A stretch of 64,000 nt of DNA from Polyangium spumosum (GCF_009649845.1 NZ_WJIE01000009.1:96685-160684); one strand, 5' to 3'. Numbered from the stretch's first letter, positions 1-44,058 are shown. Notes: a model not told the origin generated them from the letters alone. Made by a program: numbers and translations.

Positions 1-838
1 GCGCGCGTTGCGCGAGGTCGAACCACTTCTGCGCGCCCTCCTCGTCCTCCTGGCGGATGCGCAGCACCTCGGCGCCGAGCACGGCGGCGTGGGCGCGCGA
101 GGCGGGCGTCGGCGAGACGCGCGCCTCGGCGTCGAGCACCTCGACCGTGCCTTGCCAGTCCTGGTCCCGCGCGAGCAGGCCGCGGAGCTGGCGGTGCGCG
201 AGCGGAGAGCTCGGCGCGAGCTCGCGCGCCTCGGCCGCGATCGCGCGCGCCGTCTGCTCTTCGCCCGCCATCGCGTAGATCTCGGACACCGCCACGAGCG
301 CCTTCGCGCGCGCGGCCTTGTCCTCCATCGCCTCCGCCTCGGCGCGCAGCCACGCGGCTCGCTCGGCCCACGCGTCACGCTGCTGCGTGCGCACGAGGTG
401 CGCCGTGGCGTCTTGCTCGTCGTCGAACGTGGGCGCCCCCGCGAGCGGCGCGCGCTCTCGCCGCGACGGCGCGACCGGGGCGTCGTCGTCGGCCTCGGCT
501 TCGGCTTCGGCCTCGATCTCGGCGACGACCTCGGCCACCGGCGTCTCCTCGACGGCCGATCCTGTCGGCGTGACGGCCTCGAGATCGACGGCCGGCCGCA
601 CCTTCGTCTCTTCGACGAGGGCCTCGACCAGCCCGTCCTCCTCGGGGACGGTCGGCATCTCGTGCCGCGCGTCCTCCTTTGCTTTCGCCGTCACCTCGCC
701 GATCTCGGGCTCGCCGCGGTTGCCCCGCAGCGACGCCATGAGCTCCTCGGGGACGTGCGCCATGATGGTCGCCGCGTCGTCGTCGTCGTCTTCGACCGCG
801 TCCGCTGCGAGGTCGATCTCGTCTTGGGGCTCGCTCAC
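1..838 (-). CDS. hypothetical acidic/helical (TPR-like) protein, 3' end outside window; GTG start at 838 (alternative ATG at 769)
   Basis: Manual translation of the minus strand gives an open frame from GTG at 838 (VSEPQDEIDLAADAVEDDDDD...AEAEAMEDKAARAKALVAVSEIYAMAGEEQ...) running to the window start. AGGA/GGAG-like RBS 10-17 nt upstream. It lies 32 nt downstream of the stop of the 1624-aa TPR gene. The + strand ORF 8..913 is its Arg-rich antisense. Confidence 0.5.
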   Translation of the reverse strand, partial: MSEPQDEIDLAADAVEDDDDDAATIMAHVPEELMASLRGNRGEPEIGEVTAKAKEDARHEMPTVPEEDGLVEALVEETKVRPAVDLEAVTPTGSAVEETPVAEVVAEIEAEAEAEADDDAPVAPSRRERAPLAGAPTFDDEQDATAHLVRTQQRDAWAERAAWLRAEAEAMEDKAARAKALVAVSEIYAMAGEEQTARAIAAEARELAPSSPLAHRQLRGLLARDQDWQGTVEVLDAEARVSPTPASRAHAAVLGAEVLRIRQEDEEGAQKWFDLAQRA

Positions 839-870
839 GGGACCTTGATCCTTTGCTCCAGAATCGCTGC

Positions 871-3800
871 TCACCGAACACCCATGCCGAGCTTCTTGCG
901 CAGCTCGAGGTAGCTGGGGGAAAGCACGAACGAGAGAAGGCGGCGCGACCGCTCGTTCTCGGTGACCACCGAGCCGAGCTGATCCCGCGGCACGTTCAAG
1001 ATGTCGCTCAGCACGATCGACACGTCGCCGGCGGCGATCACCGCCATGCGGTCCAGGCTTCGCCGTGCCGCGTGTGTCCACGCGCGCGCGTCCTGCTTGC
1101 TCGCGACGACCTTCTGGCAGACCTCGCCGATGCTCTTGCGGATCTTGCGCGAGATCTCCTTGTGCACCGCGCGCTGGATCTCGCCGTAGACGGCGTAGCC
1201 GGGGTTCGCCACCTTGATGTCGACCTCGTTGCACGCCGCGATGACGACAGACGCGACCGTGGCCTCGTCGCGCGTGCGGAGCGAGGTGATCCCGCGCCGC
1301 AAGGCGAAGACCGTCCGCGCGATGGCCGAGCGCGCCGCCGCGTCGAGCGGCGTCGTGATCCCGGAGCCGATGACGATCGAGGGCACCTCGCCGGCGACGC
1401 CGTGAACGCGCATCGGCTCGGGGCCGCCGACGTAGACCTCGAAGTCACCCTCGAAGCCCACCGCGCCCATCCACTCCGCGACCGCCACGCGCAGCGGGTG
1501 GCCGCCGCGCGAGTCGACGCGCTCCTTCTTGCCGACGCCGAGCGAGCCGAGCGTCGGGCCGAGCGCGAGCGTCACCGTCTCGGCCATGAGCACGAAGAGC
1601 TCCGCGATCGGGCCGTGGTCCTCCGGATCGGCGATCTCGGCCATGGCCCTCGCGTCGAGCACGATCTGGGGCCGCGTCGCGACGCGACCGTCGATCCGCT
1701 TGAGCTCCGTGGAGATCGCGTCGTCGTCGCGGCCGAGCGAGACGAGGCAGCCGAGCGTCGCCTGACGCAGCGCCGCGTCCTGCCCTGCCTGCGCGATCTT
1801 CGCGAGCCGCTCGACGCGATCGGCGTCGCACGGATCCTCGGAGAGCTTCTGCACGAGCACGCTCTTCGCGCGGCCGAGCAGCTTCTGGCGGAGCGCCGCG
1901 TCGTAGCTCGTCGTGAGCACGAGATCGAGCGCCTCGCCGTCGTCCGGCGACTCGTCGAGCAGCTTCACGACCGCGCCCTCGGCCTTGAGCGGCTCGTTGA
2001 TCTTGTCGCGCCAGATCGCCATCGCGAGCCGCGCGGCCTCCATGCGGCCCTCGCGCTTCTCGCGCTCCTGCATGAGCTGCTCGAGGATCGCCGTCGCGCG
2101 CGACCAGGCGCCCGTCTTGGCCGCGACACGCGCGAGGCGCTCGCGCACGGGCGGCGTGGACAAACCGGCCTCGTGGAGGCCGACGAGCACCTTGAGCGCC
2201 TTCTCGGGGGCGTTCAGCTTGTTCTCGTAGATGTCCACCGCCGCGACGCCTGACATCAGCCGCTGCTGCGCCGGCGCCTCGCCGATGCCCGAGAGCCGGC
2301 CGAGGAAATCCGCGGCCTCGGCGAACTTGCCCATCGTGATCGAGATCTCGCCCGAGAGCGCGAGCGCGCCGACGTGATCGGGCTCGAGCATCGTGACGTT
2401 CTCGAGCGCCGAGAGCGCGCCCTCGCGATCACCCTTCTTGCGGAGCACGCGCGCGCGCTCCCAGAAGAGCTTGCCGATCTCTGCCTCGTCGTCGGCGACG
2501 TCGAGGCGGCGCCCGATGATGTCGAGCAGCCTGTCGTCCTCGTTGCGCCCGCGGACGCGGCGGAAGAGTTTGTCGAAGGCGATCGAGCGGCTCGGGTCCC
2601 GATCGAACGCCCGGGCGAACGCGATCTCCGCGTCGTCGTGCGCGTCGGTGTGCTCGAGCAGGATGACGCCCGCGGACTCCCAGAACACGGCGCCCCGCGT
2701 ATCGTCCCGGCTGAGCGCGCCGAGCTGCGCGAGCGCGAGCGCCGTCGACACGTGATCGCCGAGCGCCTCGCTCGCCGCGCGCACGCCTTCCCACGACACG
2801 ATGTCGTCCTGGCGCCGCTCGACGGCCGCGCGGAAGGTGGCGAGCGCCGCCTCCACGTTGCCCGCCGCGAGCTCCGACCAGCCGGCGAGCGCGGCCGCGT
2901 CGTGACCCGCGTCCTCGCCGAGCGCATGGCTCACGTTCTTCAGGGCGAACGCGCGGCGGCGCGGATCGCAGCCGGGCATCGCGAGCTCCAGGTTCGCGAG
3001 GCGCGTCGCGTCCGACGTGCCGGCGAGCATGGGCTGCGGCGTGCTCGGCTGATCCAGCATCGCCACGAGCGCGGCCGACGCATCCATCGCCGACCACGGC
3101 TCGTCGTCGAGGAACGCGCCCACCGCGCGGCGCGCGGACACCTCGGCCTCGCGATCCTTCGCCGCGAGCGCCGCGCCGAGCCACTCGAGCGCGGCGTAGA
3201 GCTTCGGCTCCGCGTCCGCCCAGGCCGCCGCGCGCGACACCGCCGCGCCCGGGTCCTGATCGACCACGCGCGCCAGCCGGTACGCCTCGGCCCGCGCGAT
3301 CGCCGTCGCCTCGTCGCCCTGATCCTCCAGCCGATCGAGCGCGCGATCGATCGCCGCCCGATCGCTCTGCGCATCCGGCCACGTGAGCCGCGCGAGCCCC
3401 GCGGCGACCGTGATGTCGCCCGAGCCCTCGGCCTCCGCCGTCTCCAGCGCCGTCAGCGCCTCGGCGCGATCCCCCGCCTCGCCCTGACCGACCTCCAGGC
3501 CGAAGCGCTCGATCGCGATGCTCGCCGGATCTGCGCCTGCCTCCGCCGCCGTCACGAGCGCGCGGCGACGACCGTCGAGGCTGTCCGGATCGGCCCCGCG
3601 CAGCGCCCACGCGAGCAGCGCCGCCGCCGCCTTCGAGGCGCTGCCGCGCGCCTGCTCGACGAGCTCGATCGTCTTCTGCCGATCGCCGAGCCGCCACGTG
3701 AGAAGCGCAGCTTCCAGGTAGAGCGCCGCGCCGAGCTCGATGTCCTCGGTCGACGTCGCGCACGCCGACAGGATCGTCGACGCGGCCGTGAGGTCACCCG

Positions 3801-5745
3801 CGCGGCGCTCGAGCTCCGCGAGGAAGAGCGCAACCACCTCGTCCGACGGTGACGCCTCGTGCAGCTCGCGCAGCCGCGCGCGGGCGTGATCGACGTTGCC
3901 CGAGCGCACGCTGCGCAGCGCAGCGACCACCCAGAGGCCACGCGCGAGGTCCGGGTCCGTCTCGGCCTTGGCGAGCTCCTCGATCGTCTGTGCGATCGGG
4001 CGGAAGGCGACCACCTCGCCCGGCGTGAGCTTCTTCGCGCCGAGCGCGTACGCCGCGAGCACGTGGCCGAGCCACGCGGAGGCGTCACCGCCCTGCGCTG
4101 CGAGCTGCGAGAACGCCTCGGCCGCGCCGGCGGAGTCACCACGCAGCGCGCGGCTCCGGCCGAGCTCGAACCAAAGGCTCTCCTCTTCGCCCCGCTCCGC
4201 GCCGCTCGCGACGAGCTCCGCCGTCACCTGCTCGTACCACGCCGCGTCGCCGCGGACCGAGGCGAGGGTGCGCGCGATCCGCGCGAGCAGCGGCGCTGGC
4301 GTGCCGAGCGCCGCGGCCCGCCCGAGCGCGGCCTTCGCCGCGTCCGAGTCGCCCGCCTGGCATGCCCAGACGTAGGCCGCGATGATCTCCGCGCGCGCCT
4401 TCGCCTCGTTCGTCGGGCACGAGGCGCCCGACGCCTCGAGTGATCGCGCGAGCGCCGCCGGATCTTGCGCGTCGCTCAGCAGATCGAGCTCGAGCGCGCG
4501 CGCCATGATCGACGCCGGGTCCGCTTCGAGCGCGCTGCGGAGCGCGCCGAGCGCGCCGTCCCGGTCGTTGTCGAGCATCGCCGCCTCGGCGATCCGCAGC
4601 CAGAGCGCCGCGGCGCCCGGTCCTGCGACGCCGCGCTCGAGCTCCGCCTTCGCGAGCTCCGCCGCGCCCTTCGCGTCGCCGTTCGTCTCCAGCGAGGCGA
4701 GGCGCGAGCGCGCGATGACCGACGACTGCGGGAGCTGCTCGGCGGCGCGCGCGAGCAGCTTCACCCAGCCCTCTTGATCACCTGCGCGCCGCTTCAGCTC
4801 CGCCGCGCGCAGCCACGCGTCGGCCGCGTACTCCGCGCGCCGCGCGTAACGCGGCACGCCGCTCGCGTCGCCGCGTGTTTCCTCTTCGAGGGCCTCCTCG
4901 ATGAGCTGCGCTTGACCTTCCAGGGCCCGCGCGAGCGCCGTCGGGTTGTCCTCCCGCGCGGCGATCGACTCGAGCGTCACCTGCGACCGGAAACGCCCCT
5001 GACCATCCAGCGCGGCGGCGGCGTCGATCAGATCGTACGCGCGCTGCGCGTCGCCTGCCTTCGCCGAGAGCTCCGCGAGCTCGATGAACAGGATCGCCTT
5101 CCACGTCGGATCCGTGGCGAGCTCGGCGCGCGCCTCGATGGCGCGCATGCGCCCTGGCAGGTCGCCGTCCTTCGCCGCGATGAGCTCGAGCTCGAGCCAC
5201 GGCGTCGGGTCCTCGGGGCTCGCGCCGACGGCCTCTTCGAGCGCTTCCTTCGCGCCGGCGAGGCTCTGCTCGTAGTCCTGCAGGAACGCGGCGCGCTCCC
5301 AGAACGCGCGGGCGCGCTCCTCGGGGGAGACGGAGGCGCGCGTGAGCGCCTCGAGCAGTTTCCCGAGGTTCTTGATGGACTTGCGTCGGGTCAAGATCCG
5401 GACGAGGGCCTCGAGCGGCTCGCGGAACTGCGGGTCCGCGTTGAACGCCGCGAGGTAGTCCCGCGCGGCGGACGGCTCCTCCCCGTGTTTCTCCTCGAGT
5501 ACGCCGCACTCGTGCAGGAGGAGCGCTTGGAGCGCGTTGTCCTCCTGCGCGGCGTGCTCGGACCTCAAACGATTGAGCAAGGCCGCCGCATCCTCGGCCT
5601 GCCCCGTGGGCATCGGTGTCTCTACCGTCATTGGGCTCGACGCTCCCGCGGAGACGGGTTTCTGGTCCATTGCATGCTGCGTGGGGAGACTAGCCAAACG
5701 GTGCGTCGGGAGTAAAGCGTGCTCGCGACGGATCGCGACGATCAC
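871..5745 (-). CDS. large TPR-repeat protein (1624 aa as tracked; true start may be an internal Met near 5631-5670)
   Basis: Long ORF with non-degenerate Ala/Leu/Glu/Arg-rich helical-repeat composition typical of TPR arrays. Diverse C-terminal about 300 aa. Antisense frames are R/G-rich junk. Confidence 0.75.
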   Translation of the reverse strand: MIVAIRREHALLPTHRLASLPTQHAMDQKPVSAGASSPMTVETPMPTGQAEDAAALLNRLRSEHAAQEDNALQALLLHECGVLEEKHGEEPSAARDYLAAFNADPQFREPLEALVRILTRRKSIKNLGKLLEALTRASVSPEERARAFWERAAFLQDYEQSLAGAKEALEEAVGASPEDPTPWLELELIAAKDGDLPGRMRAIEARAELATDPTWKAILFIELAELSAKAGDAQRAYDLIDAAAALDGQGRFRSQVTLESIAAREDNPTALARALEGQAQLIEEALEEETRGDASGVPRYARRAEYAADAWLRAAELKRRAGDQEGWVKLLARAAEQLPQSSVIARSRLASLETNGDAKGAAELAKAELERGVAGPGAAALWLRIAEAAMLDNDRDGALGALRSALEADPASIMARALELDLLSDAQDPAALARSLEASGASCPTNEAKARAEIIAAYVWACQAGDSDAAKAALGRAAALGTPAPLLARIARTLASVRGDAAWYEQVTAELVASGAERGEEESLWFELGRSRALRGDSAGAAEAFSQLAAQGGDASAWLGHVLAAYALGAKKLTPGEVVAFRPIAQTIEELAKAETDPDLARGLWVVAALRSVRSGNVDHARARLRELHEASPSDEVVALFLAELERRAGDLTAASTILSACATSTEDIELGAALYLEAALLTWRLGDRQKTIELVEQARGSASKAAAALLAWALRGADPDSLDGRRRALVTAAEAGADPASIAIERFGLEVGQGEAGDRAEALTALETAEAEGSGDITVAAGLARLTWPDAQSDRAAIDRALDRLEDQGDEATAIARAEAYRLARVVDQDPGAAVSRAAAWADAEPKLYAALEWLGAALAAKDREAEVSARRAVGAFLDDEPWSAMDASAALVAMLDQPSTPQPMLAGTSDATRLANLELAMPGCDPRRRAFALKNVSHALGEDAGHDAAALAGWSELAAGNVEAALATFRAAVERRQDDIVSWEGVRAASEALGDHVSTALALAQLGALSRDDTRGAVFWESAGVILLEHTDAHDDAEIAFARAFDRDPSRSIAFDKLFRRVRGRNEDDRLLDIIGRRLDVADDEAEIGKLFWERARVLRKKGDREGALSALENVTMLEPDHVGALALSGEISITMGKFAEAADFLGRLSGIGEAPAQQRLMSGVAAVDIYENKLNAPEKALKVLVGLHEAGLSTPPVRERLARVAAKTGAWSRATAILEQLMQEREKREGRMEAARLAMAIWRDKINEPLKAEGAVVKLLDESPDDGEALDLVLTTSYDAALRQKLLGRAKSVLVQKLSEDPCDADRVERLAKIAQAGQDAALRQATLGCLVSLGRDDDAISTELKRIDGRVATRPQIVLDARAMAEIADPEDHGPIAELFVLMAETVTLALGPTLGSLGVGKKERVDSRGGHPLRVAVAEWMGAVGFEGDFEVYVGGPEPMRVHGVAGEVPSIVIGSGITTPLDAAARSAIARTVFALRRGITSLRTRDEATVASVVIAACNEVDIKVANPGYAVYGEIQRAVHKEISRKIRKSIGEVCQKVVASKQDARAWTHAARRSLDRMAVIAAGDVSIVLSDILNVPRDQLGSVVTENERSRRLLSFVLSPSYLELRKKLGMGVR

Positions 5746-5834
5746 GCGCGCCGCCGTGATGTGCGCGTATTCCTGCGCGGATCGTGGGCCGACTTGCCGG
5801 CTTGGTTGGGGGGAAAGGGAGACCGCCCGCTCGC

Positions 5835-6131
5835 TCAGCTCTTGCCGAGCATCGCGTCGAGCTTCTCGCGCAGCTTCGTCTCGACCACGGGGCGCATCGG
5901 GCGCAAGAAGAGCGGCAGCTCCACCCGGATCCGCACGACCTCTGCGTCGACCCGCACCGACCCCCGCGTCCCCTTCGCGGGCCCGCTCGGCGCGTCGAGC
6001 CGCAGCTCGTCACCCTCCCAGCGCCAGCGCACCCCGCGGCGTTGCTCCAGGCGCCTCGCGAGATCCTCCGCGCGCCTCCGCGCCGCGTCCTCGCTCATCC
6101 CGTGCGGCCTGTGGATGTCGATCTGCGCCAT
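5835..6131 (-). CDS. putative polyhydroxyalkanoic acid system protein (PHA_gran_rgn family)
   Basis: 98 aa; MAQIDIHRPH...RWRWEGDELRL... pattern matches the small PHA-system protein family (TIGR02610-like) as I recall it. Confidence 0.6.
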   Translation of the reverse strand: MAQIDIHRPHGMSEDAARRRAEDLARRLEQRRGVRWRWEGDELRLDAPSGPAKGTRGSVRVDAEVVRIRVELPLFLRPMRPVVETKLREKLDAMLGKS

Positions 6132-6159: not shown

Positions 6160-6756
6160 TCAGTCGATCCGCTGCACGATCCAGTAGCCGCGCGGCGTGT
6201 CCACGACGTCGCTCACGCTGCCCTTGGCGAGGCTGAAGAGAACATACTCGGGCGCCGGCTCCAAAATTCCGCGCGGCAAGCGCCCCGCGTTCTCCATCGA
6301 GCCCTTGTCGCCCTTCGCCACCGTCGCCTTGAAGTCCGTCTTGGCCTCCTCGGCGAGCTGCTTGGCGAGCGTCAGCGCCTCCTCGCGGGGCCGCGCGTTC
6401 TGCGGCGCCCCCTGCGCGCCCTTGTACTGCACGAGGATCACCCCGAACACGACCGACTTCGGCGCCTCCCCCGCGAGCGGCGGCGGCGCCTCGCCCGTGA
6501 GCAGCAACGCCCCGCCCGCGTCGACCGGACCGCCGCCCGTCGGATCGGCTTCGCCCGTGGGATCGCCGGCCCCTGCGTCCGCGCTCTCTTCGCCTGCGTC
6601 GGCCGACGCCGTCGCGTCCGGCCCTGCGTCGCTCGGCGCGCCTGCGTCGGGCGTGCTCTCGGTGGGCGACGCTCCGCGGCGACCGCCCGGAAGGACGACG
6701 AGCGCGATGGCCCCGAGGACCAACGCTGCGAAGAGGAGGGCGGTCAGCTTCTGCAT
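6160..6756 (-). CDS. secreted PpiC/parvulin-type peptidyl-prolyl cis-trans isomerase
   Basis: N-terminal signal peptide (MQKLTALLFAALVLGAIALVV). Acidic low-complexity linker. C-terminal rotamase-like region (ILVQYKGAQGAP...EEAKTDF...KGDKGSMENAG...DVVDTPRGYWIVQRID). Confidence 0.75.
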   Translation of the reverse strand: MQKLTALLFAALVLGAIALVVLPGGRRGASPTESTPDAGAPSDAGPDATASADAGEESADAGAGDPTGEADPTGGGPVDAGGALLLTGEAPPPLAGEAPKSVVFGVILVQYKGAQGAPQNARPREEALTLAKQLAEEAKTDFKATVAKGDKGSMENAGRLPRGILEPAPEYVLFSLAKGSVSDVVDTPRGYWIVQRID

Positions 6757-6939
6757 GGCGCGAGCGCGTTAGCACATTTCCCCAGCCCAGCGGAAGCGCG
6801 CGGGCGATGCCACGCCGCCCGCCCGCTCGCCGGACGGGCCCCGCGCCCGGGACGCGTGTCGAAAAGAGCCGCGCAGCCTCGAACCCTGGTAGAAGTGAGC
6901 GACGCGGAACGATCTCGCGCAAAAGGGCCCCTCGAAGGC

Positions 6940-9900
6940 ATGAGCATGGTCAAGGTCGAGTGCGACTCCTGTACGTCCCCGTACCAGGTGGAGGAACGGC
7001 GGATCCCGGCGGCGGGGCTCAAGATGCGTTGCTCGAAGTGCGGCAACAGCATCCTCGTGAAGAAGCCCACGGACGTCGCCGAGGAGATCGATCTCCCGTC
7101 GCCGGTGGCGCCGCGCGCGAAGGCCGGCACCGAGCCGCTGATGCCGCGCCCCTCGCCGGGCAAGGCGCCGACCGCTCCGCTCGCGCCGAAGCCCCCCGTG
7201 CTTCCCGCCGTCAAGCCGAAGCCGCCCGCGCCTGCGCCGAAGCCCGCGCCGAAGCCCGAGGAGGCCACGGAGCTCGATCTCTGGGGCGCCGACGAAGACC
7301 CCGGCTTCGGCGAGATCGATCTGCCCTCGCCCGCGAAGCCGACCGTGAAGCAACGGGCCGTCTCCGCGCCCCCCGCCGACGAGGAAGAAATCGCGGACCT
7401 GCCCGTGCCCGCGAAGCCAACCGTTCGGCAGATGCCCGCGGCCGTCCACGAGTTCCCCCTCGACGACGACGAGGAGGAGGACGCGGCGCTCGCGGCGATC
7501 GAGATGTCGTCGCCGAGCAAGCCGACGGTCCGGCAGATGACGACCCCCGTGACGGCGTCCCTCGAAGTGGACTTGCCGTCCCCCTCGCCGACACGCGCGG
7601 CCCCGGCGAAGGCCGCGCCGCCGAAGCGCGACGACAAGCCGACCGCGCCCGCGCGCCCCGCGGCGAAGGGCTTCGGCGAGATCGACCTGCCCTCGCCCGC
7701 GCGCCCGGCCGCGCCGAAGCCGCCGCCGCAGAGGCCCCAGGAGAAGCCGACCGCGCCCGCGCGCCCCGCGGCGAAGAGCGAGCCGGACGCCGACCTGCCC
7801 GCGCCCGCGCGCCCCACGAGGAAAAGCGCGCCCGAGATCGACCTGCCCGCGCCTGCGCGTCCCGCGCCGCCGGCCGCCAAAGGCTTCGGCGAGATCGATC
7901 TACCCGCGCCCGCGCGCCCCGCCCCGGCCGCCGCAAAAGGCTTCGGCGAGATCGACCTTCCCGCGCCCGCCCGGCCCGGCCCGGCGCGTCGGTCCTCGGC
8001 CGCGCTGCCGGCCGCGTTGCGCGAAAAACCCGTCAGCAGCTTCGATCTGCCTGCCGTCGCCGCCGACGCCGCGCTCGACATGGGCGCGTTCGGCGAGATC
8101 GACCTGCCCGCGCCGGACCTCGGCGGCTTCGGCGAGATCGACCTGCCCGCGCCCGAAGCCTCGTTCGGTGACATCGAGCTCTCCCTGCCGCCGCCCGCGG
8201 CCGCCGCGCCCCGCGCCGAGACGTCTGGCAAGGCCACGTCCATCTCCTCGTCCGTCACCGCCATCGCGCCGCCCATGTCCGCCGTCGCGGCCTTCGACGC
8301 GGGTGACTTCGGCGAGCTCGACCTTCCCCTCGCGAGTGATCCTCCGCCCGCGCCTCTCGCGGCTCCGCCCGCTTCGCCGCCACGCGCCGCGCCTCCCGTG
8401 ACCGCCGGCTTCGAGCTCGACGACGCCGCCTTCGACGCCGCGTTCGCCGATCCGCCGCCCCCCAAGGCCGCCGCCGTCGCTGCCCCCGTCATCACGCCGA
8501 TGCCGGCGAGCACGCGCGCCGCGGCCCCCGTCTCCAAGCCGGGCGAGGAGTTTTCCCTCGGCGAGCCCGACATGGACCTCTCCACCGGCGCGCCCATCAG
8601 CGTCGGCGCCGAGACCCAGCGCGCCGAGCCCCTCGTCGTCGAGGCGCCTCCTGCTCCGCCGCCCGAGAGCGACGGCATCGGCGACGAGGTCGACCTCGCG
8701 CCGGGCTCCTCGGCCAGCCTCGACGCGCTCGCCAGGCGCGACAAGGCTCCGAAGAGCCTCGCGAGGCCCGACAGCGAGCCCCGTCGCCGCGGCCGTGGGC
8801 GTGTCTACGCGATCGGCGCGGCCGTCCTCTTCGCGATCGGCGGCGGCGCCCTCGCGCTCTTGCCCGACATCGGCCCCTTCGGCGCGCACGCCGTGAGTGA
8901 TCTCCTGAACGCCTCCGCGCACGCCGACGCGCTCGCCGCCCTCGAACGAACCACACAAGCGACCCTCGACGAGGACACCGCCGCTGCCGCCGCGCGCGCC
9001 ATCGAAGCTGCCAAGGCCGCGCAGCTCGCGCGCCCGCGCCACCGCGCGACGGCCGCCTACGCCGCGTACGTCGCCTTCGCGCGCAGCATCCGCCACGGCC
9101 GGCGCGGCGACGACGAGACCCTCGGCAAGCAGCTCCTCGGCCAGACCGAAGAGCCGAGCCGCGAGCGCACCCTCGCCGTCGCCGCGCAACACGCGCTCGC
9201 CGGCCGCCTCGAGCCGGCCCGCCGCCTCACCAAGGATGCGCTCGACGCTTCCCCGAACGACATCGACGCGGCCGTGCTGCTCGGCGAGATCGAGCTCGCC
9301 TCGAACGCCACGGCCGACGCGCTCGTCGCCTGGAAACGCGCTGTCTCGATCCGCAGCGGCGCCCGCTCGCTCTTTGGCCTCGCCCGCGCCGAGCTCCGGA
9401 AGGGTGACCTCGCGGCGGCCGAGAAGGCCGCGCGCGCCGCGCTCGAGGCCTCGCCCAAGCACGCCGCCGCGCGCGCCTTGCTCGCCGCGATCCTCGGCCG
9501 CGACAAGGCAAAAGAGGCCGAGGCCCTCGAGCTGCTCGGCAAGGTCACGGCCGAGGGCGACGTCCGCGCCTCCGGCAGCGAGCGCGAGCTCGTCGACGCC
9601 TACGTCGAGACCGGCCTCATCCACCTCGCGCGTTCGCGCATCACCGCCGCCGAGCAGGCCTTCGCCGCTGCCCTCGCGATCGACCCGCGCGACGTCGACG
9701 CGCTCGTCGGCCACGGCGAGCTCTTCTACCGGTCGAGCCGCTACTCGCAGGCGCTCCTCCGCTTCGAGGAGGCCATGCGCGCCGACGAGACCAGCGTCGC
9801 GGCGCGCGCCGGCGCGACGAAGACCCTGGTCGCGCTCGAGCGCCCCAAGGACGCGAAGGTCCTCGCCGAGAAGCTCCGCAAGGACAAGCCCGACCTGGCC

Positions 9901-11220
9901 GTGGGCGCCTATTGGCTCGCCCTCACCGAGGCCGCGCTCGGCAACAGGCAGGGCGCCGAGGCCCTCCTCAACGAGGCCATCAAGCTCGGCGGCGCGCAGC
10001 ACGAGCTCGTCGTCGCGTCTTACGTCGGGCTCGCGGAGATCCTCGCCGCCGTCGGCCGCGGCGACGAGGCGCAGGCCAAGCTCACCGAGGCGAGCGCCAA
10101 GTTCCCTGGCTTCGCCGCGCTCCACCGCGCCAAGGCCGAGGTCCACGTGGAGGCGGGCCGCTACCCCGAGGCGCGCGCCGAGTTCGAGGCGGCGCTCGCC
10201 AAGGAGGACGACCTCGCCACGCGCTTCCGCCTCGGCGTCACGCTCCGCCGCATGCGCGCCTTCGACGAATCGGCGAAGGTCTTCGACCAGGTCGCGGCCG
10301 TCGACAAGGAGTACCCGGGCCTCTCGCTCGAGCGCGGCCTCCTGTACGAGGAGACGGGCGAGAGCGAGCGCGCGCTCGAGATGTACGCGGCGGCGCTGGC
10401 GAAGGCGCCTTCGGACATCGACCTCAAGATGCGCGTCGGCTCGGCGCAGGTGATGGCGGGCCACGCGGCGCAGGCCGAGCCCATCTTGCGCGAGGTCCTG
10501 AAGGAGCGCGCCGGCTCCTCGGACGCGAACCATTTCCTCGGCCGCGCCCTGCTCATGAAGGGCGGCTCTTCGGCCGTGGGCGAGGCGATCCGGTTCCTCG
10601 AGCGCGCGACGGAGATCGACGGCAATCGCGCCGAGTATTTCCTTTACGTCGGCTGGGCGGCGAACACGCTCGGCCAGTTCCCGAAGGCCGAGATGGCCTT
10701 GAAGCGCGCGCTCGAGCTCGACCGCGAGCTCGCGGACGCCTACTGGCAACGCGGCGTCCTCCTCCACAAGCAGGGCCGCACCCTCGACGCATTGGCGGAC
10801 CTGGAGATTGCCTTGCAAAAGCGCCCCTCCCGGCACGAGGCGCACGCCACGATGGCGCTTTGTTATCAGGAGCTCGGCCGCTGGCCGGAGGCGCAAGCGG
10901 CGTGGCAAAAGGCGATCGCGGGTAATGGCTCGGTGGCCGAGTGGCATTACCGGCTGGGGAAGATCTTCGAATCGAACGGCAACAAGCTCGCCGCGACGCC
11001 GGAGCTCGACAAGGCCGTGGAGCTGCTCGCGCAGAAGGGCGGGGCCGTGGAGAGCTGGCACGCGGACGTGTACTTCCTCCACGGCGAGGCGATGCGCGCG
11101 ACGGGGCAAAAGGACAAGGCCGTGAAGAGCTACCTCCGATTCAAGGAGGTGGCCCCGATGGAGCATGCGTACCGGCCGGATGTGGACCGGGCGTTGATAT
11201 CGCTGGGGCAGGCGCCGTAG
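6940..11220 (+). CDS. MJ0042-type zinc-ribbon / Pro-rich repeat / single-TM / TPR protein (1426 aa); architecture reminiscent of GltJ/AgmX-class gliding-motility proteins
   Basis: ATG at 6940 (MSMVKVECDSCTSPYQV...MRCSKCGNSILV: CxxC...CxxC zinc ribbon), in frame with tracked ORF 5719..11220, whose 5' 1.2 kb is non-coding read-through. About 14 'FGEIDLP(A/S)P' motifs in a Pro/Ala linker (7300-8340). Hydrophobic segment RVYAIGAAVLFAIGGGALALL. C-terminal multiple TPR-like repeats. Confidence 0.8.
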   Translation: MSMVKVECDSCTSPYQVEERRIPAAGLKMRCSKCGNSILVKKPTDVAEEIDLPSPVAPRAKAGTEPLMPRPSPGKAPTAPLAPKPPVLPAVKPKPPAPAPKPAPKPEEATELDLWGADEDPGFGEIDLPSPAKPTVKQRAVSAPPADEEEIADLPVPAKPTVRQMPAAVHEFPLDDDEEEDAALAAIEMSSPSKPTVRQMTTPVTASLEVDLPSPSPTRAAPAKAAPPKRDDKPTAPARPAAKGFGEIDLPSPARPAAPKPPPQRPQEKPTAPARPAAKSEPDADLPAPARPTRKSAPEIDLPAPARPAPPAAKGFGEIDLPAPARPAPAAAKGFGEIDLPAPARPGPARRSSAALPAALREKPVSSFDLPAVAADAALDMGAFGEIDLPAPDLGGFGEIDLPAPEASFGDIELSLPPPAAAAPRAETSGKATSISSSVTAIAPPMSAVAAFDAGDFGELDLPLASDPPPAPLAAPPASPPRAAPPVTAGFELDDAAFDAAFADPPPPKAAAVAAPVITPMPASTRAAAPVSKPGEEFSLGEPDMDLSTGAPISVGAETQRAEPLVVEAPPAPPPESDGIGDEVDLAPGSSASLDALARRDKAPKSLARPDSEPRRRGRGRVYAIGAAVLFAIGGGALALLPDIGPFGAHAVSDLLNASAHADALAALERTTQATLDEDTAAAAARAIEAAKAAQLARPRHRATAAYAAYVAFARSIRHGRRGDDETLGKQLLGQTEEPSRERTLAVAAQHALAGRLEPARRLTKDALDASPNDIDAAVLLGEIELASNATADALVAWKRAVSIRSGARSLFGLARAELRKGDLAAAEKAARAALEASPKHAAARALLAAILGRDKAKEAEALELLGKVTAEGDVRASGSERELVDAYVETGLIHLARSRITAAEQAFAAALAIDPRDVDALVGHGELFYRSSRYSQALLRFEEAMRADETSVAARAGATKTLVALERPKDAKVLAEKLRKDKPDLAVGAYWLALTEAALGNRQGAEALLNEAIKLGGAQHELVVASYVGLAEILAAVGRGDEAQAKLTEASAKFPGFAALHRAKAEVHVEAGRYPEARAEFEAALAKEDDLATRFRLGVTLRRMRAFDESAKVFDQVAAVDKEYPGLSLERGLLYEETGESERALEMYAAALAKAPSDIDLKMRVGSAQVMAGHAAQAEPILREVLKERAGSSDANHFLGRALLMKGGSSAVGEAIRFLERATEIDGNRAEYFLYVGWAANTLGQFPKAEMALKRALELDRELADAYWQRGVLLHKQGRTLDALADLEIALQKRPSRHEAHATMALCYQELGRWPEAQAAWQKAIAGNGSVAEWHYRLGKIFESNGNKLAATPELDKAVELLAQKGGAVESWHADVYFLHGEAMRATGQKDKAVKSYLRFKEVAPMEHAYRPDVDRALISLGQAP

Positions 11221-11293
11221 GCGGGGGCGGGAGCGGAGGCGCAAACGCGGAGCGGGTCAGCTCCGGCGGCGGCGCGCGAGGACCATTTCCGGA

Positions 11294-11658: not shown

Positions 11659-13239
11659 ATGACGAAGGCATCCATGACACCCCTATTGCTCGCTCTGCTG
11701 GCGGGCGGCTCGCTCGGCTGCGAGACCGGCGAAGGAGGCGGGAGCGGCGGCCAAGGCGGCCAAGGTGGCCAAGGCGGCCAAGGCGGCCAAGGCGGCCAAG
11801 GTGGCGGCACGTGCACCCCCGAGGACGACGGCAATCCCTGCACGGAGGACGTCTGCGAGGACGGCGTGCCCACGCATGCGCCCACGGCCGCGGGGACCAC
11901 CTTGCCCGATCAGGTGAGCGGTGATTGCCAGCAGGCCGTGTGCGACGGCAATGGCACCGTGACCCAGCAAAATGACGACGCCGACCTGCCGCCGGACGAC
12001 GCGGACCCCTGCAAGGTGCCCGCGTGCAGCGCCGGTCAGCCCGCCATGGCCGACGCGCCGGACGGTACCACCTGCGGGGAGGGCGACGCGTGCACGCCGA
12101 CGTATACCTGCCAGGCCGGCATGTGCCACGGGGACTCGCTCGTCTGCGGCGCGAACGAGGGCTGCGACGCGGGCGCGTGCGTCTGCTTGGTCGGCCCTTA
12201 CAAGCCCGTCGGCACGACCGTCGCCATGGCGCCCGAGAACGGGGATACCGAGGTCGCGGATCTGGATGGAGACGGCAAGCTCGATTTGATCACCGTCGAG
12301 AGCAAGTTCGACGGCGCCGGCAATGTCAGCGTGCGCCTCGGCCTGGGCGACGGCACGTTTGGCCCGCTGGTTCAATACGCCGTCGCGATGAGCCACGGCG
12401 TCACCGCGGCGGACGTGAACGGCGACGGCAAGCCGGACGTCGCGCTCGTCGGCGCCCAGAGCAACAACGTGCACGTGCTGCTGAACCAGGGCGATGGCAC
12501 CCTCGCCGCTGCCGTGGGTTACCCGACGAACGGGTTCCCGTATTACATCGCGGCCGCGGACGTGAACGACGACGGCGCGGTCGACCTCGCCGTCGCGTAC
12601 CTCTCCGACAGCAACGTGAGCGTGTTCCTCAACCAGGGCGCCGGCACGTTCGCGGCCAAGGCCGACTACCTGATCGCGGGCTTTGGCGGCTCCGACGGTC
12701 TCAGGGCCGGGGACCTCGACGGCGACGGCAAACCCGACCTCGTGTACTTGCGCGACGACGCGGCCCACGTCCTCCTCAACCAGGGCGACGGCACGTTCGG
12801 CGCCGCGACGTCCTACCCCGTGGGCTTTGGCATTCGCGCCGTGGACATCGCCGATCTGAACGCCGACGGGAGCCTCGATCTCGCGGCGGCCTACTTCAAC
12901 GGAGGTGCCGCCAACGGCATGGGCGTGCTCCTCAACCAGGGCAACGGCACGTTCGCCGCCGCGGTCGACCATGCCGTCACCTTTGGCGCCACCGGCATCG
13001 CGGCCGGTGACATCGACGGCGACGGCGACCCGGACCTCACCGTCGCTAGCCCGAGCAACACCACCTTGTCGGTGTTCCTCAACGCGGGGGACGCGAGCTT
13101 CGGCGCGCCGACCACGTACGCCATGGCAAACGGCGCCTACGGCATGACGGCGGGCGATCTGAACGCGGACGGCCGGTCGGACTTCCTCATCGGGGGCATC
13201 GGCGCCGTGCAGGTGTTCCTCTCGACCTGCGCGCCCTGA
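11659..13239 (+). CDS. FG-GAP/VCBS-repeat (integrin-alpha-like beta-propeller) lipoprotein
   Basis: Signal peptide plus lipobox (LLAGGSLGC). (GGQ)n linker. Cys-rich module. Repeated DxDGDGKxD...LLNQGDGTF motifs typical of FG-GAP repeats. Confidence 0.85.
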   Translation: MTKASMTPLLLALLAGGSLGCETGEGGGSGGQGGQGGQGGQGGQGGQGGGTCTPEDDGNPCTEDVCEDGVPTHAPTAAGTTLPDQVSGDCQQAVCDGNGTVTQQNDDADLPPDDADPCKVPACSAGQPAMADAPDGTTCGEGDACTPTYTCQAGMCHGDSLVCGANEGCDAGACVCLVGPYKPVGTTVAMAPENGDTEVADLDGDGKLDLITVESKFDGAGNVSVRLGLGDGTFGPLVQYAVAMSHGVTAADVNGDGKPDVALVGAQSNNVHVLLNQGDGTLAAAVGYPTNGFPYYIAAADVNDDGAVDLAVAYLSDSNVSVFLNQGAGTFAAKADYLIAGFGGSDGLRAGDLDGDGKPDLVYLRDDAAHVLLNQGDGTFGAATSYPVGFGIRAVDIADLNADGSLDLAAAYFNGGAANGMGVLLNQGNGTFAAAVDHAVTFGATGIAAGDIDGDGDPDLTVASPSNTTLSVFLNAGDASFGAPTTYAMANGAYGMTAGDLNADGRSDFLIGGIGAVQVFLSTCAP

Positions 13240-13284: not shown

Positions 13285-14364
13285 TCACGGCCGGCGTCGC
13301 GGCTGCAGGCGCGGCAGGCCCGCGGCCGCGCGCCCCGCGGACAACGTCGCGGAGGGGCTCTCGCCGAACCGGCGCTTGTATTCGACGCTGAATCGCCCTG
13401 GATGACCGAGCCCGAGCGCGGCCATGACGCTCGCGACCGATGTACTGGCCGAGGGCTCGGCCAGGTGGCGGCGCGCGAGCTCGAACCGGCGCCGACGCAG
13501 GAAATCCATCGGGGGCATTCCCCGGCACGCCACGAAGGCTGCCCGGAGGGACCGCTCCGGCGCGCCTGCCGCGGCGACGATGTCGGCCAGGGTGATGGGC
13601 TCCGCGGCGTGCGCGGCCATGAATTCCTCCGCCCTGCGGACGCAATCCGGGGCCACGCGCGGCTGCGGCGCATCGAGGATCGCCGAATGGTTGTGCCGGG
13701 TGTGTACGAGGAGGCTCGTGAAGAGCGCGCCACGCAGCGCGCCGAGCACCATCGGCGAGGCCCATGGCTGCTCGATCTGGCGGCGAAAGAGCTGCGCGAC
13801 CTCGTGTACCGTGCTCCCCGGTCCGTCCTCGAGGTCGAGCGCCACATCGAAGCAGATCGGGCCGCGCAGCGCAGCGCCCGTGAGCGCGGCGAAGTGGGCG
13901 TCGAGCGCTCCGCGATCGATCACCAGGGTCCGCCCGTGAAACGCCGCGGTGACATCGATGAAGCAGGACCGCCCTGGTGAAAACAGCGCACCCCGCCGGC
14001 CCGGCGCGACGTGGAAGGGCTCGCCCGCGTGGTCACCGGCGCTCTCTCCTTCGTCCGAGAGACACAGGATGTAGTGCTCCCCGCTGTCCGGCAGGGAGGC
14101 CTGCCCTCCGCCGGCCCAGTCGCCCATCACGACACGGGTCGCGCCGAAGGAGACGAAGCCCAGCGCACAGCCGAAAGTTTGGTCGCGCTTGGGCTCGAGG
14201 GTCGCCTCTGCATAAACGTGGCTGAAGACCTCCCGGGCCTCGCCGACGTCGCTGGTGCACACGAGCTGAGCCCGCGCAATCCCGGCCTCCTGCGCCGCCG
14301 TGGCGCGCGAGGGCCCTTCAGCTCGAGGGCTTGTTCGGTCGAACCGACGCGCACCATCCGGCAT
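13285..14364 (-). CDS. AraC-family transcriptional regulator (start uncertain)
   Basis: C-terminal twin HTH (ITLADIVAAAGAPERSLRAAF...MPPMDFLRRRRFELARRHL...SVASVMAALGLGHPGRFSVEYKRRFGESP). N-terminal ligand-binding-like region. Confidence 0.75.
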   Translation of the reverse strand: MPDGARRFDRTSPRAEGPSRATAAQEAGIARAQLVCTSDVGEAREVFSHVYAEATLEPKRDQTFGCALGFVSFGATRVVMGDWAGGGQASLPDSGEHYILCLSDEGESAGDHAGEPFHVAPGRRGALFSPGRSCFIDVTAAFHGRTLVIDRGALDAHFAALTGAALRGPICFDVALDLEDGPGSTVHEVAQLFRRQIEQPWASPMVLGALRGALFTSLLVHTRHNHSAILDAPQPRVAPDCVRRAEEFMAAHAAEPITLADIVAAAGAPERSLRAAFVACRGMPPMDFLRRRRFELARRHLAEPSASTSVASVMAALGLGHPGRFSVEYKRRFGESPSATLSAGRAAAGLPRLQPRRRP

Positions 14365-15456: not shown

Positions 15457-15957
15457 ATGGCCTCCTCCAGGCACCGTCCGGGCGGGACGACGAGCAGGGC
15501 GCGATTCATCGTGGCCCTCGCCTCGTGCCTTGCCCTCTCGAGCCTCGGCTGCTCCGCGGGCCCCCCGCCGACGCGTTTTCTCGTCGAGGTCGCCATCACC
15601 GCCAGGGCGAACCGCAATTCGCCCGTCCCCATGACCCTCGTCGCGGTCCAGGAGCCGAAGCTCTTCGACCAGATCGTCAAGCTCACCGCCAAGCAGTGGT
15701 ACGACCAGCGCGAGCAGATGCGCCGGGATTATCCGAGCGGCACCGCCTTCACCGAGTGGGATTGGGAGTTCGTCCCCGGCCAGTCGCCCCCGCCCGTGGT
15801 CGTCGAGGTCGACGGCAAGGCCGTCGGCGCCGTCATCTTTGCCAATTATCGCTCGCCCGGCGATCATCGCTTCCGGATCGGCCCGCAGCGCCGCATGCGC
15901 GTCGACCTCGGTGACGATGATCTCGTCGTGAGCCCCCTCGATGCTCCGGAGGAATGA
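15457..15957 (+). CDS. tssJ: type VI secretion lipoprotein TssJ
   Basis: 166 aa. Lipobox (LSSLGCS). Size and internal pattern (ARANRNSPVPMTLVAVQEPKLFDQ...RFRIGPQRRMRVDL) match TssJ/SciN. First gene of the T6SS operon; 4-nt overlap with tssK. Confidence 0.8.
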   Translation: MASSRHRPGGTTSRARFIVALASCLALSSLGCSAGPPPTRFLVEVAITARANRNSPVPMTLVAVQEPKLFDQIVKLTAKQWYDQREQMRRDYPSGTAFTEWDWEFVPGQSPPPVVVEVDGKAVGAVIFANYRSPGDHRFRIGPQRRMRVDLGDDDLVVSPLDAPEE

Positions 15958-17288
15958 GCATGCGCGCCGACGACATTCCGCTCGCGATTCAATGGCACGA
16001 CGGGATGCTCCTGTCGCCGCAGCACTTCCAGGAGGCCGATCGCAGGGCCGAGCGCCTCCTCGCTTATCACCTCGGCCAGGCGAGCCCCTACCACCACGGC
16101 ATCGTCACCCTCAAGCTCGCCGAGGGCACCCTCGCGAGTGGCCTGCTCCGCGTCCAGCACGTCGAGGCCATCATGCCCGACGGCACCCTCGTCCATCACG
16201 TCGCCGGCAAGCACGACCTCTCCGTCGACCTGCGCCCCCACGCCGCGCTCGTCCATCACGCGCCCGCCACCGTCTACCTCGCCGTCCCGCGCGCGCAGAT
16301 GGCCGTCTCCGCCTCCGCCGCCGACCTCGCGCGCCACCGCTCCGCCGAGGGCGCCGCCGTCGTCGACGAGCACACCGGCGAGGACCCGCTCGAGATCCCC
16401 CGCATCGCCCCGAGCTGCCGCCTGCTCGTCGCCGCCGAGCCGCCCCCGCGCCTCGTCTGCTTGCCCATCGCCCAGGTCCGCCTCGAAGGCGAGGCCTTCG
16501 TCGCCACCGACTACATCCCGCCCACGCTCGGCGTCGCCCAGGGCTCGCCGCTCGACGAGATGTGCCAGCGCCTCACCGGCCGCCTGCGCGAGAAGGCCAT
16601 GCGCCTCGCCGAGAAGTCGAACTTCCTCTCCCGCACCACCGATCGCGAGCTCATCGGCGAGATCCGGCGCCAGATCCAGTGCCTCGTCGCCGCGCTCCCG
16701 CCCTTCGAGGCCGTCCTCTATTCCGAGCGCCCGCACCCCTTCAGCCTCTTCGTCGCGCTCACCGGCCTCGTCGGGCAGATCTCCTCCCTCGCGCGTACAC
16801 CCGTCCCGCCGCTCCTGCCCCGCTACCGGCACGACGACCTGCGCGCGACCTTCGAGACCGCCCGCGATCACATCTTCCGCATGGTCGACGAGGGCATCAT
16901 CGAGTCCTTCACCGCGTACCCCTTCGACCTCAAGGAGGGGAAGTACAACGTCCTCTTCCAGCGCGAGTTCCGCACGCGCGCCCTCGTCGTCGCCGTCCGT
17001 GTCCAGCGCGGCGTGCGCGAGGATCAGCTCCTCAACTGGATGAACGGCGCGCTCATCGGCGCCCCGGCCCGCCTGCGTACCATGCAGGAGAGCCGCATCC
17101 TCGGCGCGGGTCGCAAGCGCGTCGAGCGCTGCGGCGACCTCGTCGCCACGCCCGGGACCTTGCTCTTCGAGCTCGAAGAGCAGAGCGTCTACCTCGACCC
17201 GGGCGAGCCGCTCACCTTGTGCAACACGGCCGATCCGACGGGGCAGAGCGGCCCCTCCGAGGCGGTCCTCTACGTGAAGAGCGGGTAA
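15954..17288 (+). CDS. tssK: type VI secretion baseplate protein TssK
   Basis: N-terminus IQWHDGMLLSPQHFQEADRRAERLL is the TssK signature; 444 aa. Confidence 0.9.
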   Translation: MSMRADDIPLAIQWHDGMLLSPQHFQEADRRAERLLAYHLGQASPYHHGIVTLKLAEGTLASGLLRVQHVEAIMPDGTLVHHVAGKHDLSVDLRPHAALVHHAPATVYLAVPRAQMAVSASAADLARHRSAEGAAVVDEHTGEDPLEIPRIAPSCRLLVAAEPPPRLVCLPIAQVRLEGEAFVATDYIPPTLGVAQGSPLDEMCQRLTGRLREKAMRLAEKSNFLSRTTDRELIGEIRRQIQCLVAALPPFEAVLYSERPHPFSLFVALTGLVGQISSLARTPVPPLLPRYRHDDLRATFETARDHIFRMVDEGIIESFTAYPFDLKEGKYNVLFQREFRTRALVVAVRVQRGVREDQLLNWMNGALIGAPARLRTMQESRILGAGRKRVERCGDLVATPGTLLFELEEQSVYLDPGEPLTLCNTADPTGQSGPSEAVLYVKSG

Positions 17289-17295
17289 CGGGCCG

Positions 17296-22112: not shown

Positions 22113-22117
22113 CCGCG

Positions 22118-23197: not shown

Positions 23198-23358
23198 CGG
23201 GGGATCCGCGAGCGCGCCCCTACGAGGGTGTTGTGTTTTCGAGCCCGAGCACGGTAAGAAGGAAAATGCGCCAGAAGTAGACCCCGTGCGCGGGCGGTGT
23301 TTCGGGAAGTTCGCAAAGCCGCGGCTGCCGCCGCGAGAGCCGAGGAAGGGAGCCATCG

Positions 23359-23862: not shown

Positions 23863-23883
23863 GTCCGCGCGGAGGATACGAAC

Positions 23884-25386: not shown

Positions 25387-25492
25387 CGGGCTTCGCAGAT
25401 CGGTGTAGGGTGTAAATCATGGAGATCGCCGTCCCACGCGCGGATACTCGCGCGCGGGCGGCGATCATCGACGGGGACGCGGAGGATTTACG

Positions 25493-25987: not shown

Positions 25988-26023
25988 CCCGAGGACGTAT
26001 TCTCGTCCCAGGGGAGCGACAGA

Positions 26024-44017: not shown

Positions 44018-44058
44018 GATGCCACCGGACGTGGGATGATACACGTCGGCGCGGCGGA

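Follow-up and report, generated by a model that had tools for sequence, protein, structure and literature searches.

Several envelope proteins of bacteria combine an N-terminal zinc ribbon with a single transmembrane (TM) helix. In Myxococcus xanthus, the gliding protein GltJ (AgmX) is composed, in order, of a zinc ribbon, a linker, a GYF domain, a TM helix (residues 385-405), a disordered periplasmic segment and a TonB-C-like tail (PMC11135422, PMC11761067). A motif in its linker (L86-T107) binds MglA-GTP and, intramolecularly, the protein's own zinc ribbon; the freed zinc ribbon recruits MglB, the GYF domain binds a proline-rich sequence of AglZ, and models of the giant protein GltI (AgmK) give it several sites at which the FHA domain of GltG and the GYF domain of GltJ would dock (PMC11135422, PMC11761067). 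In ZitP, it is again the zinc ribbon that binds a partner, PopZ (PMC5182065). In the Polyangia, homologues of GltC, GltD, GltE, GltF and GltG occur together with split GltI homologues, and no GltJ homologue is listed; Sorangium cellulosum, for instance, has two glt-linked GltI homologues, sce2920 (1774 aa) and sce2921 (2081 aa), which lie beside those GltC-G homologues (Luciano et al. 2011). Here we describe a gene at 6940-11220 (+) of a 64,000-nucleotide stretch of the Polyangium spumosum genome (NZ_WJIE01000009.1:96685-160684; the window), which encodes a zinc-ribbon protein with an array of short motifs in its linker and is divergent from an operon that encodes two giant proteins. An earlier note on the same DNA had likened this gene to gltJ and its giant neighbour to gltI.

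A zinc-ribbon protein with a repeated linker motif

The product of the focal gene is 1426 residues (aa) long, starts with MSMVKVECDSC and is 100% identical to a Polyangium spumosum protein that NCBI names 'tetratricopeptide repeat protein' (P0001). The gene has a GC content of about 74%, with GC fractions of 0.76, 0.56 and 0.90 at the first, second and third codon positions (GC1, GC2 and GC3), in a window of about 70% GC whose real genes have values of about 0.7, 0.5 and 0.9, respectively. Two long open reading frames (ORFs) on the opposite strand, at 6744-8744 and 7900-11244, overlap the motif array; because they show the GC1-low/GC2-high pattern within a high-GC gene, they were rejected as antisense shadows.

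The protein begins with an MJ0042-type zinc ribbon (aa 1-42; 6940-7065 (+)), in which the four cysteines C8, C11, C31 and C34 are invariant across 34 orthologues. This region is matched by Pfam Zn_ribbon_4 (E 8e-10) and by TIGR02098 MJ0042_CXXC (30.7 bits, with a cut-off of 20.9), and in an AlphaFold2 model of aa 1-140, made with a 34-sequence alignment, it folds into four strands with a predicted local distance difference test score (pLDDT) of 83-88. It is followed by a disordered linker of about 580 residues (about aa 41-621; 7066-8802 (+)) that contains 20.5% Pro and 20.3% Ala; the Pfam scan of the 1426-aa protein matched no domain within it, and its modelled part, aa 43-140, has a pLDDT below 60. 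A single TM helix comes next (about aa 622-644; 8803-8871 (+)), identified by the Kyte-Doolittle maximum of 2.08 at aa 622, and a TM segment is found at the equivalent place in 120 of 120 orthologues. The sequence RRRGRGR precedes the helix, so the N-terminus is predicted to lie inside and the C-terminus outside. The remaining ~780 residues (aa 645-1426; 8872-11217 (+)) are predicted to form a periplasmic solenoid of tetratricopeptide repeats (TPRs), since TPR_2, TPR_19, TPR_16 and other TPR families match aa ~720-1405 (E 1e-20 to 1e-31). The order of zinc ribbon, Pro/Ala-rich disordered region, TM helix and TPR domain given in the earlier note was thus borne out by Pfam, TIGR02098, composition, AlphaFold2 and Kyte-Doolittle hydropathy, and we have high confidence in this description of the architecture and of the family that shares it.

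Within the linker, 13 motifs with a DLP core form an array at 7078-8340 (+), with the consensus G-F-G-E-I-D-L-P-[AS]-P-A-[RK]-P and the core [DE]-phi-D-L-P-x-P. The DLP cores are located at aa 51, 127, 153, 211, 249, 285, 301, 320, 339, 369, 388, 401 and 461. Counted by regular expressions, the linker holds FGEIDLP six times, FG[DE][ILV][DE]L eight times, [DE][ILV][DE]LP ten times and DLP 13 times, and three degenerate copies (ELDLW, DIELS and DMDLS) bring the total to about 16; the 'about 14' copies reported previously are therefore a fair count for a relaxed motif. When the linker was shuffled 5000 times with its composition preserved, FGEIDLP arose 0 times, and DLP was found 0.6 times on average and 5 times at most, compared to the 13 observed. 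The region 7300-8340, to which the motifs had been assigned, includes 12 of the 13 cores, whereas the first copy, EEIDLPSP (aa 47-54; 7078-7101), lies upstream of it, right behind the zinc ribbon. At the DNA level, part of the array shows recent tandem duplication, with a 57-nt unit present 2.7 times at 7833-7985 and a 108-nt unit present 2.2 times at 7582-7814, and the remaining motif copies are scattered with irregular spacing (DNA repeat families D1-D4). As peptides, the motifs take forms of the GFGEIDLPAPARP type and the form KGFGEIDLPAPARPAP, and the form in the Sandaracinaceae is DLDLPAPKG.

We found 690 relatives of the focal protein at E<1e-10. Those with named sources come from Polyangium, Sorangium, Chondromyces, Byssovorax, Minicystis, Sandaracinus, Sandaracinaceae and Polyangiales, and the family carries only generic names such as 'tetratricopeptide repeat protein' or 'zinc-ribbon domain-containing protein'. 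In 120 orthologues at 36-100% identity (Polyangium, Sorangium, Chondromyces, Byssovorax, Minicystis and metagenome-assembled genomes (MAGs)), the linker contains a median of 8 DLP cores (range 2-17) with the consensus G-F-G-E-[IV]-D-L-P-[AS]-[PV], and DLP is essentially absent from the periplasmic part. In 89 relatives of the Sandaracinaceae/Polyangiales type, the median is 19 (range 7-30), with about 1.2 expected from shuffling; here the consensus is D-L-D-L-P-A-P-[KR], and DLP is likewise absent from the non-linker part. Among 12 Polyangium-clade orthologues, identity reaches 76% in the motif columns versus 53% in the spacers (Mann-Whitney p 3e-15), and 11 of the 13 motif copies are kept in position. 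A motif profile of 31 positions, built from 52 instances, was then searched against 1.84 billion representative proteins at E<=1e-3, a search of limited sensitivity in that a protein reaches significance only with some three or more good copies. It returned 18 matches, among them low-GC lineages in which the motif reads PFGDIDLPAP. The earlier note had held that occurrence in unrelated proteins with no conservation would speak against its reading; instead, 17 of the 18 matches were members of the family with the zinc ribbon-linker-TM-TPR layout, or fragments resembling parts of them, and the motif is conserved.

Because the array is conserved, kept in position and family-specific, we conclude that it represents a real short linear motif and not slippage noise and, as judged by sequence comparison, one under purifying selection. 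The location of this motif in a disordered tail, together with its conservation and family specificity, fits the multivalent docking site that had been suggested for it. The papers on GltJ, GltI and ZitP cited here describe neither the family nor its motif array, no literature search aimed at either having been made.

Two further repeats were noted in the course of these comparisons. The sole profile match outside the family, a hypothetical protein of 565 aa from Teichococcus aestuarii (P0131), contains about 11 copies of an unrelated 48-aa tandem repeat that includes LLGDIDLPVTADLGG. Many orthologues (P0029, P0032, P0059, P0079 and others) carry a second array, G[LFY]PxP, with up to ~25 repeats in the linker region, as exemplified by GGGLPMPAHGGGLPMPAH in Minicystis; the window protein does not have it.

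GltJ, GltI and the neighbouring giants

M. xanthus GltJ (675 aa, MXAN_4862) and most of GltI were recovered by a genome scan and used as controls. In a search of PDB sequences, the best match of the focal zinc ribbon was that of GltJ (7zok, E 2e-7), followed by ZitP (2nb9, E 0.004), and the top two fold matches were ZitP (2nb9; probability 0.99, E 0.056) and GltJ (E 0.14), neither of which is significant alone. BLASTP of the whole focal protein against M. xanthus GltJ aligned 38 zinc-ribbon residues at 39% identity and nothing else. GYF_2 had no match in the focal protein at E<=0.01, with E 2.6e-18 for the GltJ control, and the AgmX/PglI tail model NF033768 also had no match there, with 78.1 bits for the control; the NCBIfam equivalog for GltJ, NF033761, gave 26.9 bits over model positions 3-42, which are the zinc ribbon, with a cut-off of 450 and 921 bits for the control. 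The GltJ/AgmX likeness that had been proposed thus holds for the type of zinc ribbon and not for the rest of the architecture, and the suggested profile search for GYF and zinc-ribbon domains detected only the latter. Moreover, published GltJ has no periplasmic TPR domain, so the layout of zinc ribbon, linker, TM helix and periplasmic TPR had been ascribed to GltJ in error (PMC11135422, PMC11761067).

In the M. xanthus gene, the GltJ linker motif reads LFTDVEEDEIGAVFDQVLSSGT (the numbering of the paper is offset by 1). The FGEIDLP motif is unlike it, and BLASTP found no alignable counterpart of the GltJ motif (LFTDVEEDEIGAVFDQVL) in the focal protein. A single acidic-amphipathic motif at aa 491-505 (8410-8454 (+)), GFELDDAAFDAAFAD, when compared by eye with aa 87-108 of M. 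xanthus GltJ (from L006), loosely resembles the GltJ linker motif EDEIGAVFDQVL, and '...DD....AAF' strings akin to it are found in distant orthologues; we mention this as a lead only.

The focal gene is separated by a divergent intergenic region of 183 bp (6757-6939, from the gene coordinates) from an operon on the minus strand. The first gene of this operon, at 6160-6756 (-), encodes a membrane-anchored peptidyl-prolyl isomerase (PPIase) of the PpiC/parvulin type (198 aa; Rotamase_3 E 9e-7, Rotamase E 2e-6) with a conserved N-terminal hydrophobic anchor, and the second, at 5835-6131 (-), encodes a PHA_gran_rgn protein of 98 aa (Pfam PF09650, E 4e-23). In three orthologues of the latter (L001:8733-9029, L002:8896-9192 and L003:8833-9129) the string VE[IV]DLPFLL was seen, which shares its letters with the linker motif and reads VELPLFL in the window copy; we judge it coincidental because it is inside a folded domain. 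Giant 1 follows at 871-5745 (-), a 1624-aa ORF that, in line with the earlier note, is a real coding sequence with weak TPR matches (TPR_19, TPR_14 and ARM_TT21); its true start is probably at 5631 or 5670, which gives 1586-1599 aa. The N-terminus of giant 2 occupies 1-870 (-) and runs off the window start; it was recognised from the frame-2 translation and from tblastn to giant 2 of L001 and of metagenome loci, and the protein is about 1800-2000 aa long in relatives. No signal peptide was seen at the N-terminus of either giant. The giant 2 frame also contains, before its first in-frame ATG (window ~790-870 (-)), the sequence PQDEIDLAADAVEDDDDD, with an EIDL string that lacks the Pro.

The relationship of the giants to GltI was examined at several depths. 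BLASTP of giant 1 against GltI aligned several TPR-like segments at 24-25% identity (best E 1e-5). In HHalign comparisons of the last 400 residues, giant 1 matched GltI at 93.8% (E 1.7e-7) over 324 collinear columns when 32 versus 22 sequences were used, giant 2 matched GltI at 84.2% (E 7e-6) over more than 320 columns, and the two giants matched each other at 97.3%. With a five-sequence profile, giant 1 against GltI gave 18-31%, which was nevertheless the sole long collinear match in a sliding-window scan. Reversed controls gave at most 0.2%, and comparisons of the giant 1 or GltI C-terminal domain with TPR segments gave at most 4% over fewer than 45 columns; the corresponding control for giant 2 gave 73% over 89 columns, which is a TPR-to-TPR match upstream of the C-terminal domain. 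Since the matches are collinear and the controls clean, we take each giant to be a TPR-like solenoid followed by a C-terminal domain of the GltI type, and both to be relatives, not orthologues, of GltI. In giant 1 this domain comprises the last ~330 aa (nt 871-~1870), and the GltI-like character attributed to the 1624-aa neighbour was in this respect upheld. As far as the sequences indicate, common descent is limited to the zinc ribbon in the case of GltJ and to the C-terminal domain of the giants in the case of GltI.

The five-gene divergent arrangement, with the zinc-ribbon gene on one side and the PPIase, PHA_gran_rgn, giant 1 and giant 2 genes on the other, recurs in Sorangium, Minicystis and Chondromyces, as well as in a distant MAG and 11 metagenome loci (L001, L002, L003 and L088, besides the metagenome loci), with the identity of the zinc-ribbon protein down to 34%. 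The pairing of this gene with the giant operon is deep but clade-limited, being seen in the Polyangiaceae-like clade. After giant 2, related loci have TypA/BipA, MoaA or other unrelated genes and never glt genes. No gltD-H or aglRQS genes were found in the window or, in related loci, on the far side of the giants, so that a comparison with the M. xanthus gltI-gltJ locus, which the earlier note had suggested, shows no further glt synteny. When 185k species genomes were scanned for GltJ loci, the best 80 belonged to Myxococcaceae, Archangiaceae, Anaeromyxobacter and unclassified MAGs, and none of them was named Polyangia.

The giant operon was also seen elsewhere. In more distant lineages (L105, L107, L109, L116, L121 and L123, about 2900-5900), ORFs that resemble atpD-atpC, as judged by their C-terminal sequences, directly precede the parvulin, PHA_gran_rgn, giant 1 and giant 2 genes. 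The gene typA comes after the giant operon in at least L107. This placement, after atpD-atpC and before typA, suggests that the giant operon is a housekeeping-like unit.

Other genes of the window

The neighbours of the focal gene in the window are the parvulin, PHA_gran_rgn and two giant genes, an FG-GAP protein gene, an AraC gene and a type VI secretion system (T6SS) cluster. The FG-GAP/VCBS-repeat protein (11659-13239 (+)) has at its N-terminus a hydrophobic leader whose last residue is Cys, as well as a (GGQ)n tract; such a protein is also encoded near the family member in L085 and not in other loci. The next gene, at 13285-14364 (-), encodes an AraC-family regulator. The T6SS cluster (15954-28305 (+)) encodes TssK, IcmF/TssM, TssB, TssC, Hcp, TssE and TssF, with VgrG at 35235-37235 (-). 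A linkage of the focal gene to this cluster, which lies 4-30 kb downstream, was considered and rejected: the cluster is absent beside every orthologue examined, so its proximity is incidental. After the T6SS core genes, a 1237-aa protein (29378-33091 (+)) shows apolipoprotein-like helical-repeat similarity only. Just downstream of VgrG, a 1715-aa protein (38993-44140 (-)) with an N-terminal pesticin/phage-lysozyme-like domain (E 1.7e-9) is probably a T6SS cargo effector. Finally, a 2000-aa protein (46698-52700 (-)) is made up of MopE-type Cu-binding motifs over nearly its whole length (340 bits, at least 8 stretches).

Proposed role, alternatives and known systems

The reading that we favour, and which we rate close to an even prospect, is that the focal gene product is a bitopic inner-membrane scaffold, widespread in the class Polyangia, and that its tail serves for the multivalent docking of cytoplasmic partners. 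The motif array would then gather these partners at the membrane as a multivalent platform. More tentatively, and with some doubt, we suggest that the individual motifs are putative docking sites whose likeliest partners would be the repeat surfaces of giants 1 and 2, the GltI-like neighbours. A further protein-protein contact may come from the zinc ribbon, as in GltJ and ZitP, and the periplasmic TPR solenoid could link the platform to periplasmic or outer-membrane partners.

A number of observations weigh against this proposal. Every step beyond a conserved motif in a disordered tail is inferred, including the cytoplasmic location of the tail and the periplasmic location of the TPR domain, for which the basis is the positive-inside rule and zinc-ribbon chemistry. 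The gene and the operon can also be found apart: in three loci of the Sandaracinaceae/Polyangiales type, the gene is divergent from zapA, 5-formyltetrahydrofolate (5-FTHF) cyclo-ligase and uvrC genes (zapA-type loci at L086:8747-9070, L087:9588-9881 and L089:9513-9866), with these genes in place of the giant operon; other distant family members are likewise without an adjoining giant operon; and in the six metagenome loci in which the operon stands after atpD-atpC, there is no zinc-ribbon gene in the ~5 kb upstream. The kinship of the giants to GltI was seen by profile-profile comparison with deeper alignments only, and hmmsearch with a hidden Markov model of the GltI C-terminal domain found no giant among all ORFs of nine loci. 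In addition, intramolecular docking of a motif onto the zinc ribbon was considered and set aside, as the AlphaFold2 model of aa 1-140 folds the zinc ribbon alone with no motif docked onto it, although this is a weak negative.

Of the alternatives, the one raised by the earlier note is that the focal protein is a GltJ/AgmX orthologue that acts in the Agl-Glt gliding focal adhesion, and that its 1624-aa neighbour is GltI. The same type of zinc ribbon with 7zok as its best PDB sequence match, the bitopic layout with a cytoplasmic disordered linker, and the adjoining GltI-like giants, given that gltI and gltJ adjoin in M. xanthus, are in keeping with this idea, but as orthology it is ruled out by domain content (neither GYF nor the AgmX/PglI tail), by the NF033761 score of 26.9 versus 450 bits, by the BLASTP alignment of 38 zinc-ribbon residues only, and by gene context, with no gltD-H or aglRQS nearby, housekeeping genes flanking the giant operon and no named Polyangia among the best 80 GltJ loci. 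Further, no GltJ homologue is listed for Sorangium, whose sce2920/2921 are in a different, glt-linked locus (Luciano et al. 2011). We consequently assign the GltJ identity scarcely any probability. The protein might instead be a polarity or division landmark like ZitP, HubP or FimV, in which the zinc ribbon and the acidic repeat tail would bring in an organiser of the pole or the divisome, with the periplasmic TPR domain as the anchor of the protein to the envelope; ZitP, a bitopic zinc-ribbon protein that binds PopZ, ranks first among the fold matches and second among the PDB sequence matches, and the divergence from zapA in the three Sandaracinaceae-type loci would agree with such a role. 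However, zapA and 5-FTHF cyclo-ligase are a widespread housekeeping pair, so the adjacency may be incidental; the linkage is absent in the Polyangiaceae clade, and the Pfam scan found no DUF3426 and no LysM/FimV domains in the focal protein, which leaves a landmark role unlikely in our estimation.

A periplasmic TPR scaffold that would serve the biogenesis of polysaccharides or of the outer membrane, similar to PrsT, BcsC or PelB and with the cytoplasmic tail as a regulatory appendage, seems to us improbable to much the same degree. PrsT does give the best long NCBIfam alignment (aa 741-1327, 127.8 bits), some relatives bear the JGI label 'cellulose synthase operon protein C', and the neighbouring membrane-anchored parvulin could be a periplasmic chaperone; however, the cut-off for PrsT is 312.2 bits, BcsC scores 15.5 with a cut-off of 858, and GltI, which is cytoplasmic, scores 222 bits on PrsT, above the focal protein, so the PrsT match reflects generic TPR similarity. 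Nor were glycosyltransferase, Wza/Wzc, PEP-CTERM or bcs genes found in any locus examined. The parvulin has also been considered as an enzyme for the array itself, with the Leu-Pro bonds of the DLP motifs as its substrates and their isomerisation switching the conformation or binding of the tail. Its gene is the immediate divergent neighbour in a conserved pairing, Leu-Pro is invariant in every motif, and the Par10 of E. coli favours a hydrophobic residue, Leu among others, in front of Pro. On the other hand, PpiD and other anchored parvulins are exposed on the periplasmic side, and if the window parvulin is so too it cannot reach a cytoplasmic tail; in loci in which the giants and the zinc-ribbon gene lie apart, moreover, the parvulin gene accompanies the former, and we think this switch very unlikely. 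Lastly, the repeats could be without specific function, as low complexity produced by replication slippage in a Pro/Ala spacer that provides length only, a view to which the recent tandem duplications in part of the array and the variation in copy number from 2 to 30 among relatives lend some colour. It is disfavoured by the persistence of the core motif at 34% to 100% identity, also in low-GC lineages that use different codons, by motif columns significantly above spacers with 11 of 13 copies kept in position, and by the absence of DLP outside the linker, and we consider it highly improbable.

The scaffold reading that we favour has a bolder extension, which we regard as speculative and rather unlikely. 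Polyangia glide, and the zinc-ribbon/DLP-array/TPR protein together with the two giants might constitute an unrecognised envelope-spanning machine of this class, in which the array clusters the giants; the protein could then be a functional stand-in for GltJ, with the array coupling the cytoplasmic platform to the periplasm through the TPRs instead of a TonB-like tail.

Multivalent short linear motifs have rarely been documented in bacteria, and the DLP motif is sharply delimited, specific to one family and conserved to great depth; a single protein may hold as many as about 30 copies, carried on a membrane anchor that has a zinc ribbon of the GltJ/ZitP type. If the array does dock the giants, it would provide a second example of a giant TPR scaffold with a bitopic zinc-ribbon adaptor, independent of the gliding machine, and a tractable peptide-domain pair for the recruitment of GltI-type clients, and it might explain how cytoplasm and envelope are connected in Polyangia that are seemingly without GltJ. 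The GltI-type C-terminal domain defined here is, in addition, common to a widespread and unannotated two-giant operon.

Compared to known systems, the giants are, like GltI (MXAN_4863), cytoplasmic TPR-like solenoids with a homologous ~330-aa C-terminal domain ending in ...R.LL.F.LS..Y.ELR..LG..V. GltI, however, is a single product of the glt cluster with a length of about 3800-4100 aa, whereas here there are two giants, of about 1600 and 1800-2000 aa, that each end in a C-terminal domain of their own; their genes share an operon with those of the parvulin and the PHA_gran_rgn protein and have housekeeping genes on the flanks. The giant locus of the window also differs from sce2920/2921 of S. 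cellulosum in that the latter follow a GltG homologue. Polar scaffolds of the HubP/FimV type are single-pass membrane proteins with a disordered acidic repeat region that is thought to recruit several clients, as proposed for the focal protein; they differ from it in their opposite orientation (LysM periplasmic, repeats C-terminal), their unrelated repeats and their lack of a zinc ribbon. ZitP of Caulobacter crescentus shares an N-terminal MJ0042-type zinc finger, one TM helix and a periplasmic domain, but it is small, this domain is DUF3426 and not TPR, and it has no motif array. GltJ and the focal protein both have an N-terminal MJ0042 zinc ribbon, a bitopic topology with the N-terminus inside (predicted for the focal protein) and a long disordered linker with one or more short acidic-hydrophobic motifs, and both genes adjoin that of a GltI-type giant. 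GltJ, at 675 aa, has one linker motif, a GYF domain, a disordered periplasmic segment and the AgmX/PglI tail, whereas the focal protein, at 1426 aa, lacks the GYF domain and this tail and has 13 DLP motifs and a predicted 780-aa periplasmic TPR solenoid. By analogy, its design would resemble the way in which GltJ docks the MglA/AglZ/GltI platform to the Agl-Glt machine.

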